From a virus (lineage: Duplodnaviria; Heunggongvirae; Uroviricota; Caudoviricetes), in IMG/VR virus record IMGVR_UViG_2531839193_000016: a stretch of DNA of 64,000 nucleotides; one strand, written 5' to 3'. Made by a program: the position numbers. This document shows positions 6,001 to 9,000 of this stretch, piece by piece (position 1 is the stretch's first letter; each line of letters begins with the position of its first letter).

Positions 6001-9000
6001 AACTGGTTCGAAACAGACGCGGATGTTCATGCCCGTTCATTCACGGCGGCAAAAGTGGCACGCCTGGACGTACTGACCACACTACAGGCGGAAGTGCAGC
6101 GTGCTGTTGATGAGGGCATTTCACAGAAAGCATTTATCCGCACGCTGACACCCCGCCTGCAAAAGCTGGGATGGTGGGGAAAGCAGATTGTGGTGGACAG
6201 TGCAGGGAACGCGGAAGAAGTGCAGCTTGGCAGCCCCCGCCGTCTGGCGCTGATTTACAACGTGAACACCCGTGTGGCTTACAATGCCGGGCGTTACACG
6301 CAGATGATGAACAACACGGACACGCATCCGTTCTGGCAGTATGTGGCGGTGATGGACAGCCGCACCCGCCCGGCACATTCCGCCCTTAACGGGCTGGTAT
6401 TCCGCTATGATGATCCGTTCTGGAATACTCACTACCCGCCCAATGGCTGGAACTGTCGCTGCCGTGTGCGGCCATTGTCTCAGGCCCGTCTGGATGCAAT
6501 GGGGTTATCCGTTTCATCCGGTGAGGATCATCTCTCCACCCGCAATGTTGAGGCTGGCGTGGATAAACAGACCGGAGAAGTCAGAGAAATGCCGGTGACC
6601 ACATATTCAGATGGCACCAGAACCATGACACCGGATGTGGGCTGGTCATATAACCCCGGCTCGGCAGCGTTCGGCACAGACCAGGCGCTGATCCGCAAAC
6701 TGATCGAGGTGAAAAGCCCGGCGTTACGGGAAATGGTGGTTCAGGAGATGAACAACAGCCCGGAGCGGCAGCTGGCGTTCCGCATCTGGGCAAAAAACAT
6801 CATGCAGACCCGGCGAGGTGGTAACGATATCCGCACGCTGGGCTTTATGACTGAAAGCATTGCGCAGGCAGTGGAAAGCCGGACGGGAACGCCACCGGCC
6901 CGCCTGCTGGCGATGAGCGGTAAAAATGTGCTCCATGCAGACAGTGTGAAACATCAGAATGACGGCATCGCCCTGATGCCAGAGGACTTCGGGCGCTTAC
7001 CGGCAATGCTGGCAAAGCCAAAAGCGGTGCTGTGGGACAAACGGCACAACAATCTGATGTATATCGTGGAAAATAAGGATGGCAGTGTGCAGATTGCCGT
7101 TAATGCACCGTACAGTCTGAAACGTCAGCCCGACAAACTGGATGTGATTGTGAATGCTTACCGGGTTATCAATATGGATAAGCTGAAATCGGATATCCGG
7201 GGCGGAATGCTTGAGGTGCTGGAAGGACAAATTGATTAACGGTCAGTGGCGGGGGTCGAACCCGCATACATGATCCACCCGGAGGCAGGCACCGACTTTA
7301 CCAGTTAAGCGTACACTGACCGCCTGTTTATTTTATATTCATCTTTTATGCGGAGGCAATATGTCATCCATTGATGCGGCGGTCGTGGTGGACGTTGCGC
7401 GTCTCCAGCGGGTCTTTGCCCGGCTTCAGTTTGTGGGAAGCGGAAAAGACCTGGCACGCAGTGTGGCGGAGAGTCTTCTGTCATCGTCAGAAATGGCATT
7501 TGAGCAGGAAAAAGAGCCGGATGGTGAACGCTGGCATGACTGGTCAGATCCTTACCGTGAGTGGCGTACCCGTAAGGGATACACGCCCGGCAAAATCCTG
7601 ACGCTGAACGGCGATCTGGCCCGCCGCCTGACCACGGATTATGGCGATACCTGGGCGCTGATTGGATCAAATGAACCTTATGCAGCCATTCATCAGTGGG
7701 GGGGCCTGCCTGGTATGCCACCGGGACCGGCGGCCATTGGCGCACGTCCGTATATGGGCTTTGATCAGGTGGCAGAACAGGAGATCATGGACGAAATCAG
7801 AAAACGCTTTAAAAAGGCCACAGAAACGCCGTAATGGTTTAAGGTATACAAACGCATTACCTTACCCTCTTCAGGCGCGTGTCGTGATTTTCTAACCTGT
7901 ATTTAACGGGCTTTAAAATCTGCGTGAAGCGCCTTTCTCATTTTTCCCCTGTCAGCACTTTCTGAAGTCCCGCAAAACCTGCCCCGAAAAACACCGGCTT
8001 ATGCTGCCGGAATGAAGACGAAAAACACGCCCAAACTTGCTTATGCCATTCTGAATGCCATCAGCCTGTCCGCAGACGGGGACGGTGACTGGTGTCAGAT
8101 CATGCCAGCCGGTCGGGTAAAGGCCCGTGACGGTCGCCCGGAAAAACCGGAGGAAGGCTGGCTGATTAACCATGCGGCCGTTGAGCGTATGGTATCCGGG
8201 GTCGTGGCACTCAATCAGCCGGTGAAGATTGACTATAACCACCAGTCACTGATTGAGGGGCATGCGGCACCGGCTGCCGGTTTTGTCATGGCCTCGCCGG
8301 AGAACTTCCGTTTCAGTGAAGAGCGGGGTTTTGAAGTGCGTCCGAAGTGGAACCCTCCGGCCATTGAACACCTGCGCAATAACGAATTTCCCTGGTTTTC
8401 CCCGGTGATTGGTTATGACGAAATCACCGGTGAACCTGTTGAGCTTCGGATGCTGGCTATTACCGGTGACCCCGGTCTGACTGGCATGAATCCTGTCGCC
8501 GCACTGTCGGCGGATGACCTTTATAACGCCTTAAACCCTCCTTTAAAGGACACCTCCATGAATGAGCAATTACGCCAGTTGCTGACGGCGCTCGGTCTGA
8601 CCGTGGCCGACGGTGACGAATTTACACCGGAACTGGGCACGGCGGCGCTGTCTGCCCTTACCGGGATCAAAACCCGTGCGGATGCGCACGACACCCTGAA
8701 AACGCAGGTTGCCAGCCTGTCGGCAGAGCTGGAAACCGCAAAAGGCACACCAACTGGCGGCACTATTGATCTGACGAAATACGTGCCCGTTGAGACGTAT
8801 AACGCCCTGCGTACCGAATATGTCGCGCTGTCGGCACAGCACGGCAGCACCACGCTGGAGCAGTTGCTGGATAAGGCTGAGTCCGAAGGACGCATTTTCA
8901 AAAGCGAACGCGGATACATGGAAGGACTCGGACAACAGATTGGCGTTACAGCACTTTCTGCACAGCTTGACGCCCGCCAGCCGGTTGCGGCTCTGACCAC

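Follow-up and report, generated by a model that had tools for sequence, protein, structure and literature searches.

The DNA analyzed here is a stretch of 64,000 nucleotides (nt) from a virus of the Caudoviricetes (IMG/VR record IMGVR_UViG_2531839193_000016), and the whole stretch is called the window below. The head module of a Mu-like phage occupies positions 2671-10083 of the window and is encoded by the plus strand. In this module, the head genes F and G are separated by a gap of 121 nt, which is the site of a tRNA-shaped RNA gene. The comparisons described below indicate that this element is very probably a selected, non-decoding tRNA-like RNA gene on the minus strand. It is a member of a conserved family of putative anticodon-less tRNA-shaped RNAs, which occurs in Mu-like phages and in satellites and is apparently undescribed. 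A full-text literature search found no description of the RNA; since the search covered open-access papers and bioRxiv only, an earlier description is possible.

Structure of the element in the window

The original prediction, made from the sequence of the window alone, had placed a tRNA-like structure between an F-like and a G-like head gene. The Pfam matches of the two flanking genes agree with this placement, because they are MuF-like and gpG-like, respectively (Table 1). On the minus strand, from position 7322 to position 7240, the element reads CGGUCAGUG-UAC-GCUU-AACUGGUA-AAGU-(24 nt)-UGUAU-GCGGG-UUCGACC-CCCGC-CACUGACCG. The closing stem had been described as an 8-bp helix. The pairing exists as described (GGTCAGTG, 7321-7314, with CACTGACC, 7248-7241, minus strand), but the helix is longer: it consists of nine Watson-Crick pairs (7322-7314/7248-7240), and G7323 and G7324 could add two G-U pairs (7324-7323/7239-7238). 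The T-arm mimic GCGGG-TTCGACC-CCCGC was found where it had been reported (minus strand, 7265-7249). Neither a convincing D arm nor an anticodon arm had been folded in the prediction. The anticodon arm is absent indeed; a D arm, however, is present, with a GCUU/AAGU stem and a GG dinucleotide in its loop AACUGGUA.

The Rfam tRNA model (RF00005; gathering score, 29 bits) matched the element over positions 7241-7320 with 31.0 bits (E = 9.6e-5). The acceptor, D, and T arms were aligned by the model, and the 24 nt at the place of the anticodon arm were left unaligned. ARAGORN called neither a tRNA nor a tmRNA at the element. These results, together with the 4-nt loop of the hairpin that takes the place of the anticodon arm, confirm that the structure is not an intact tRNA. 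The folding energy of the element was no better than chance on either strand as compared with shuffled sequences (z = -1.3 for the minus strand and -1.0 for the plus strand). Since single-sequence folding energies are thus uninformative, the case rests on the relatives.

Relatives of the element and their shared architecture

To collect relatives without reference to the RNA, loci were fetched via the G protein. In 31 of 35 viral contigs, the element was present at the F/G junction on the opposite strand, and G of the element-bearing loci was as little as 61% identical to that of the window. The RNA-less loci with a G homologue were L034, whose G is 64% identical, and three distant loci. Of 5,426 complete genomes of E. 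coli, 231 contain the region as well; the prophage Sp18 of O157 Sakai is one example. Pattern searches added Citrobacter braakii, Edwardsiella anguillarum, Shewanella, and other viral and metagenome contigs, as well as three chromosomal copies in Rheinheimera and a related metagenome-assembled genome. In total, 42 distinct relatives were collected. The Mu-like phages that carry the RNA at F/G belong to several Gammaproteobacteria. In the Shewanella-type loci (L082, L089, and L120), the RNA is also located at an F/G junction. Matches to the D-arm pattern in Acinetobacter and in other genome contigs were rejected, because they were coding sequences (the Acinetobacter matches were read as dnaJ) or had no T arm.

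A covariance model, R1, was built from the alignment of the relatives. R1 detected the window copy over positions 7240-7322 with 93.2 bits (E = 1.3e-22). The scores of the members ranged from 46 to 93 bits, whereas genuine tRNAs scored 25-32 bits. The window's own tRNA-Arg(CCU), at position 34199, scored 27.9.

In many E. coli RefSeq genomes, the element is labeled "tRNA-OTHER" by NCBI, and the same label is found in O157 Sp18-type prophages, in which the DNA is only 77% identical. The sole difference of the E. coli copies without the label is G57A in the T loop. This T-loop variant, UUCAACC, was observed in L021 and L163, where the copy falls below the tRNA call of NCBI. Another variant, UUCGCCC (A58C), is present in L004 and L150. 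It arose in both phage and satellite lineages, and it would break the T54-A58 pair. Both T-loop variants are recurrent.

The members share one architecture. An acceptor-like helix of 9 to about 15 bp is closed, and no member encodes CCA. U8 and A9 are followed by one extra C before the D stem, and the D loop is AAYYGGUA. A hairpin of 7 to about 20 bp (hereafter, the substitute arm) occupies the place of the anticodon arm. A short linker that ends in UAU leads to a canonical T arm, and the last U of the linker can form the A15-U48 tertiary pair.

The substitute arms of the relatives were folded. All 31 distinct arms formed a single hairpin, with a 4-nt loop in 22 and a 7-nt loop in none. The loops range from 3 to 14 nt, are mostly of 4 nt, and vary freely. 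In sister sequences, the arms differ in the loop only (UCAG, UCAA, UCCG, and UUCG). Therefore, the loop of the substitute arm is not a recognition sequence. A genuine tRNA with an odd anticodon, such as a suppressor or a frameshifter, was rejected on account of the free variation of the loops and the negative result of ARAGORN.

Compensatory changes and the selected strand

Covariation was counted on an alignment of 25 sequences with 18 base pairs and compared with 500 shuffles. Standard pairs were formed in 94.4% of the cells. Compensatory changes on both sides were detected in 11 of the 18 pairs, and the observed values were reached by none of the 500 shuffles. When the 3′ partner was slid by 1-3 columns, pairing dropped to 37-60%.

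Closing helix: Eight of the nine pairs covary across the 25 relatives. These include the 8th and 9th pairs, which are absent from tRNA. The 8th pair (-1:73) is GC in 13 sequences, CG in 3, UA in 3, and AU in 2, and the 9th pair (-2:74) is AU in 13, CG in 8, and GC in 2.

T stem and D stem: In the T stem, CG is replaced by UA in nine sequences and GC by AU in three. In the D stem, a change from U-A to C-G was found in the copy of E. coli JNEC-KY179 that is annotated as tRNA-Tyr, and a change from C-G to A-U was found in L139 (121-196).

The covarying helices contain 26 G-U combinations and only one A-C. Because the G-U pairs form only in the minus-strand RNA, the minus strand is the selected strand. 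Furthermore, the RNA of L028 and L032 shares 96-98% identity with the window copy, whereas identity falls to about 70% in the 400 nt of F and G next to it; the promoter spacer of these loci is 55-67% identical to that of the window. The original prediction had named structural conservation in homologous phages as one of its tests, and this conservation is strong.

A putative promoter at the base of the helix

Within the kilobase that surrounds the site, a promoter scan predicted a single promoter of the sigma-70 type. This promoter lies on the minus strand and points into the RNA gene, and transcription would start near positions 7323-7325, at the base of the closing helix. In 30 of the 42 distinct family members, a -10-like hexamer precedes the helix base by 3-10 nt, and in 25 of these the distance is 4-6 nt. 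The hexamers of the relatives have the form TAnnnT (TAAAAT, TATACT, TATAAT, TATATT, or TATGCT). Members without the hexamer are mostly downstream units of tandem arrays, or the helix base was misjudged by the extension rule. The hexamer stays at the helix base despite the variation in helix length from 9 to 15 bp. We infer that the tRNA-shaped RNA gene is a transcription unit of its own, with a conserved putative promoter.

In the window, the predicted -35 region overlaps, on the opposite strand, the Shine-Dalgarno sequence of G (GGAGG, 7352-7356) and the spacer. At the other end, the stop codon of F (7237-7239) abuts the 3′ end of the RNA gene, and the 3′ flank of the RNA gene, UUAAUCAAUUUGU, is inside the end of F. 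A helix followed by a T run, as expected of a terminator of the RNA gene, was observed only in L109.

Insertion between head genes and allele classes

In phage Mu, F and G (gp30 and gp31) overlap by 4 nt. The gap between F and G is 9 nt in Shewanella phage MuM16-1, and in L034, F ends at the ribosome-binding site of G. The family covariance model gave no match in any of the three. Since F and G overlap or lie close together in Mu, MuM16-1, and L034, which lack the element, the element is regarded as an insertion between otherwise adjacent head genes. By this comparison, it is a putative accessory insertion of the moron type in the head module of a Mu-like prophage, and it is read against the late operon. 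As in morons, it has its position between adjacent genes, and it has a promoter of its own at the sequence level only. A mobile element like a short interspersed nuclear element or a miniature inverted-repeat transposable element is not supported, because the copy number tracks the number of prophages (median, one place per genome) and no target-site duplication was seen.

In MuM16-1 (L131 4716-5327), an annotated RNA-directed DNA polymerase gene and a regulator are inserted downstream of G. This insertion likewise points to a slot for accessory genes in this part of the head module.

The enterobacterial copies are divided into class 1 (window), class 2a (Sp18), class 2b, and class 2c. Within a class, the RNA is almost invariant. 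Between classes, the helices show compensatory changes and the arms are unrelated. In L010 and L026, G is 94% and F about 75% identical to the window, but these loci carry a class-2 RNA that is only 69-76% identical. The comparison of L010, L026, L028, and L032 with positions 6840-7760 of the window shows mosaic exchange, in which the RNA alleles move independently of their flanks.

Satellites and other genomic contexts

An 8-kb satellite-like island in E. coli JNEC-KY179 (L001 5996-6195; L161 1107-9268) is integrated at a tRNA-Ile gene. The island encodes an integrase, Ash, Icd-like proteins, a RepA-type helicase, SSB, PerC, and a Mor-family activator. At its end are two RNA genes of the family, which are annotated as tRNA-OTHER and tRNA-Tyr; the latter is a mis-annotation. 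In metagenome relatives of the island, two or three tandem copies of the RNA are located behind a single promoter (L156 1130-1434; L147; L150; L154). The three copies of L156 each match one phage class: class 2a (90%), class 1 (about 80%), and 2b/2c (64-68%; interior).

The segment with Mor and the RNA array was matched by 15 complete E. coli genomes. Most of the segment is present in 14 of them, and TOE17 matches only 14% of the query. The satellite and the Mu-like prophage type occur together in at least 3 of the 15 satellite-bearing genomes. The Mor proteins of the satellite and of the homologous Mu-like prophage in E. coli CI5 share 44% identity; at the RNA locus, this prophage and the window are 98% identical. 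The island of JNEC-KY179 also contains two antisense RNAs of the C4 type (71 and 78 bits) and one isrK-like RNA (60 bits) (L001 10422-10509, 10900-10987, and 11012-11088, minus strand).

In L076, L084, and L087, the neighbor of the RNA is a gene for a DUF2971 or DUF2199 protein, and a capsid gene of the gpT type and mor are close by. These contexts look like variable accessory slots. The RNA was also found beside copA and beside an array of clustered regularly interspaced short palindromic repeats (CRISPR). In Rheinheimera soli and a related metagenome-assembled genome, the RNA is located about 200 nt past one end of a long CRISPR array. The array has at least 47 repeats of 29 nt, and the repeat was read as type I-E-like. 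One of the RNA-bearing Mu-like viral contigs contains a type II hammerhead ribozyme (L089 11738-11810, minus strand; 53 bits, threshold 37).

Genes around the element

The features of the element and the genes of the head module are listed in Table 1. The 177-nt gap between G and I (7835-8011) corresponds to the place of the gyrase cut site in the phage Mu record (Mu 17879).

Table 1. Features of the RNA gene, its surroundings in the window, and the CRISPR-adjacent copies. Positions are those of the window unless a locus is given.
Feature	Position	Strand	Remarks
tRNA-shaped RNA gene (putative), 83-nt core	7240..7322	-	9-bp closing helix, D arm, substitute arm, and T arm; cloverleaf
Closing helix, 5′ strand CGGUCAGUG	7314..7322	-	pairs with 7240-7248
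Closing helix, 3′ strand CACUGACCG	7240..7248	-	next comes UUA (complementary to the stop codon of F); no CCA
D arm	7295..7310	-	stem GCUU (7310-7307)/AAGU (7298-7295), loop AACUGGUA (7306-7299); from the Rfam tRNA alignment
Substitute arm	7271..7294	-	imperfect hairpin at the place of the anticodon arm; 4-nt loop UCCG at 7283-7280
Linker UGUAU	7266..7270	-	directly 5′ of the T arm
T arm	7249..7265	-	GCGGG (7265-7261), loop UUCGACC (7260-7254), CCCGC (7253-7249)
Predicted sigma-70-type promoter	7330..7359	-	-35 TTGCCT (7359-7354), 18-nt spacer, -10 TAAAAT (7335-7330); promoter scan
554-aa open reading frame at the terminase position		+	no Pfam match; CI5 homologue annotated as hypothetical
Mu-type portal	4326-5924	+	
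MuF-like head morphogenesis gene (F)	5908..7239	+	Pfam Phage_Mu_F 4.1e-29, MuF_C 1.8e-6
gpG-like virion morphogenesis gene (G)	7361..7834	+	Pfam Phage_tail_S 1e-33
Protease/scaffold protein I	8012-9136	+	
Major head protein T	9136-10083	+	
CRISPR-adjacent copy	L118 165-3050 and 3250-3328 (RNA copy and array)		
CRISPR-adjacent copy	L129 5374-5452 and 5640-8000 (RNA copy and array)		

Comparison with known RNAs and elements

The element shares the cloverleaf core with tRNA (RF00005): U8, A14, G18-G19, the T-loop UUCGA, and the acceptor, D, and T arms are kept. In contrast to tRNA, it has no anticodon stem-loop, and a hairpin of variable length, mostly with a 4-nt loop, is found instead. Its acceptor helix is closed by at least nine covarying pairs, CCA is not encoded, and one extra nucleotide is present between position 9 and the D stem. 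Thus, the element is not a decoding tRNA: it has the cloverleaf and lacks both the 7-nt anticodon loop and the free N73-CCA end. The alignment shows that the features expected to build the elbow are kept (U8, A14, the GG of the D loop, the T-loop UUCGA, A15-U48, the T stem, and the acceptor-like helix), and the two ends with which a tRNA decodes, the anticodon and the free CCA, both appear to be absent.

None of the other families of Rfam 15 (YrlA, tmRNA, C4, etc.) was above its gathering threshold at the window element or at 12 related loci. At E values up to 10, the only further matches, STnc480 and SNORD27, coincide in part with the promoter region and score well under their thresholds.

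The tRNA-like domains of bacterial Y RNAs are closest in concept to the element. They do not decode either, retain both D and T arms as well as the tertiary pairs of tRNA, and are likewise found in phages (PMC4201824). YrlA is circularly permuted, has a loop-closed acceptor stem and a Ro60-binding module, and is encoded beside rsr (Ro60). In Yrn1 of D. radiodurans, the acceptor-side helix continues into the two RNA ends, and the "anticodon" loop has an abnormal size of 6 nt (PMC4201824). Unlike in YrlA, the arms of the element are in the order of tRNA. The annotation of the homologous complete prophage includes no gene of the Ro60 type.

The tRNA-like domain of transfer-messenger RNA (tmRNA) is likewise a tRNA mimic that has acceptor and T arms and no anticodon arm. 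However, tmRNA has G3-U70, a reduced D loop, a tag frame, and pseudoknots. In the element, 3:70 is C-G or U-A, the D arm is complete, the length is only 83 nt, and neither a tag nor pseudoknots are present.

In Pseudomonas Mu-like phages, an anti-CRISPR locus is located between G and the protease gene. The element resembles morons and this locus as a small insertion between head genes with a putative promoter of its own, and in its presence/absence polymorphism and cassette-like exchange. It differs from the anti-CRISPR locus in that its product would be an RNA, transcribed against the operon.

The C4 antisense RNA of P1 and P7 (RF01695) is a phage regulatory RNA that is processed by RNase P, and in engineered "tRNA scaffolds," the anticodon arm is swapped for a cargo hairpin. 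In these RNAs, as in the element, tRNA-like features would serve processing or stability, and the anticodon arm is a replaceable module. Nevertheless, the element has no sequence or model similarity to C4, and the C4 matches in the satellite are separate loci. Moreover, only 2 of 19 lineages give support for a target of the arm.

Proposed role of the RNA

We propose that the RNA is a tRNA mimic. A constitutive sigma-70 promoter that overlaps the ribosome-binding site of G would start the RNA at the base of the helix. Its synthesis would take place in the lysogen and at early times of infection, as long as the late operon on the opposite strand is silent, and its promoter would be occluded later by late transcription. 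The paired 5′ and 3′ ends may stabilize the RNA. It would then bind a protein that reads the elbow and the acceptor/T helix of tRNA. RNase P, another tRNA-processing or modification enzyme, and a tRNA-directed immunity or toxin protein are candidate partners. The partner would be titrated or redirected to the benefit of the phage or the satellite, and the role that we favor is that of a decoy, inhibitor, or adaptor in conflicts among phage, satellite, and host. Partners that read shape are the likeliest, because the elbow and the acceptor/T helix are conserved, the length of the arm is free, and the 3′ end is closed. We lean slightly toward accepting the identity of the element and this general mechanism together, and we regard any particular protein partner as doubtful.

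Several points weigh against the mimic. Many members were retrieved with the D-arm pattern, and the invariance of the D arm is therefore partly an artefact of retrieval. No conserved partner gene adjoins the RNA besides F and G. A decoy faces a very large cellular tRNA pool, so that simple titration of an enzyme would not obviously be effective. The tandem arrays of the satellites need endonucleolytic processing as in tRNA operons, and the mature ends may thus be tRNA-like, with CCA added. In addition, the near-invariance of the arm and the helix within a class hints at sequence-specific recognition, unlike a generic elbow mimic. The allele classes and the "one of each" arrays of the satellites also suggest specific recognition, which a generic mimic leaves unexplained.

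A more specific form of the proposal takes up these last points. The family may be a new class of allele-specific tRNA-shaped effector RNAs in conflicts among Mu-like phages, satellites, and hosts. The L-shaped core would dock on an immunity nuclease, a toxin, RNase P, or a synthetase, and the class-specific helix and arm would set the specificity. This would explain why satellites carry one copy per phage allele class in tandem. We put it forward as a tentative idea, which is at present unlikely to be correct in full.

Alternative explanations

Maturation as a tRNA: The RNA might be processed like a tRNA. RNase P would cut it at or near the 5′ end of a 7- or 8-bp acceptor, the trailer would be trimmed, CCA would be added, and the product would be charged without ever decoding. 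Such an RNA could serve aminoacyl transfer, or it could sequester a synthetase or EF-Tu. Phage tRNA genes without CCA are known, for example in T4, and G-1:C73 is the histidine identity set of E. coli. The window copy and the other enterobacterial copies have G-1:C73, and G-C is the commonest pair at this place (13 of 25 sequences). The tandem arrays of the satellites look like tRNA operons and need processing, and YrlA of M. smegmatis is cut by RNase P and receives CCA (PMC4201824). However, the discriminator is C, U, A, or G across the family and merely covaries with -1. Histidine identity was rejected, since G-1:C73 of the window copy is not conserved across the family. One would not expect -2:74 to covary if CCA took the place of a trimmed position 74, and the predicted start is already at the helix base. 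Furthermore, G3-U70, a long variable arm, and a linked aminoacyl-transferase gene are all missing. We consider this maturation improbable and continue to favor a mimic with closed ends.

Antisense regulation in cis: At F/G, the RNA might silence leaky expression of the head genes in the lysogen, by duplex formation with the late mRNA, by RNase III cleavage, or by transcriptional interference. The tRNA fold would then be a mere stabilizing scaffold. The position and the antisense orientation at F/G are kept even where G is 61% identical and in the Shewanella-type loci, the predicted promoter overlaps the translation start region of G, and paired ends favor stability. On the other hand, complementarity is automatic for an RNA in this position, and a cis-antisense RNA needs neither the tertiary motifs of the D and T loops nor the compensatory changes. 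The family is also found away from F/G, namely, in satellites downstream of mor, by copA, and by the CRISPR array. Regulation in cis has, in our judgment, a small chance of being the main function as compared with tRNA mimicry.

Anti-Shine-Dalgarno activity in trans: By analogy with C4 of P1 and P7, the substitute arm might be an anti-Shine-Dalgarno sequence on a tRNA scaffold, which would block the translation of G. The window arm UGCCUCCG (7287-7280, minus strand) is perfectly complementary to the ribosome-binding region of G, CGGAGGCA (7351-7358, plus strand), with p = 0.002 against shuffled arms. In the unrelated lineage L138, GGCUCUCC matches its own GGAGAGCC (p = 0.007). However, none of the 17 further lineages tested shows the match. 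Among them are L028 and L032, which are the closest relatives of the window, L135 and L145, which are those of L138, and all class-2 RNAs. The complementary bases are partly buried in the stem of the hairpin, the loop bases vary freely among close relatives, and no run complementary to a Shine-Dalgarno sequence was seen in the satellite arms (by eye only). This activity is very unlikely to be the function of the family, and we treat the match as a coincidence or a lineage-specific extra.

A signal on the plus strand: The original prediction had suggested a terminator or a processing signal, which would act in the late mRNA between F and G. The complement of the cloverleaf does fold (-26.4 kcal/mol), and a T-rich stretch (7325-7350) follows on the plus strand, as had been noted. 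This stretch is, however, the complement of the predicted minus-strand promoter, the -10 of which is conserved, and not a terminator tail. The consensus scan found no terminator-like site on the plus strand within 7241-7345. Together with the G-U to A-C ratio of 26 to 1 and the z value of -1.0, these results speak against the suggestion, and we give it hardly any weight.

A relic: That the element is a decaying tRNA gene or a functionless tRNA fragment left by integration, as the borderline tRNA scores, the tRNA-OTHER label, and the lack of an anticodon might indicate, has next to no chance in view of the compensatory changes in all helices of a full-length cloverleaf, the conservation of the RNA (96-98%) over its flanks (about 70%), the conserved putative promoter, the same architecture in Escherichia, Citrobacter, Edwardsiella, Shewanella, and Rheinheimera, and the fact that Mu-like phages insert by transposition, without the use of attachment sites in tRNA genes.

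Significance of the family

Non-decoding tRNA mimics are rare, and tmRNA, the Y RNAs, and the viral tRNA-like structures each opened new biology. Existing annotation flags the present element only as tRNA-OTHER and occasionally as tRNA-Tyr; that it is a distinct family, with its own architecture and satellite arrays, is apparently undescribed. These genes should not be counted as tRNAs by annotators, and a dedicated covariance model separates them cleanly. If a tRNA-recognizing protein of the host or of a phage is the target, the element would be an RNA-based accessory factor in a slot of the late operon, like the anti-CRISPR genes of Pseudomonas Mu-like phages.

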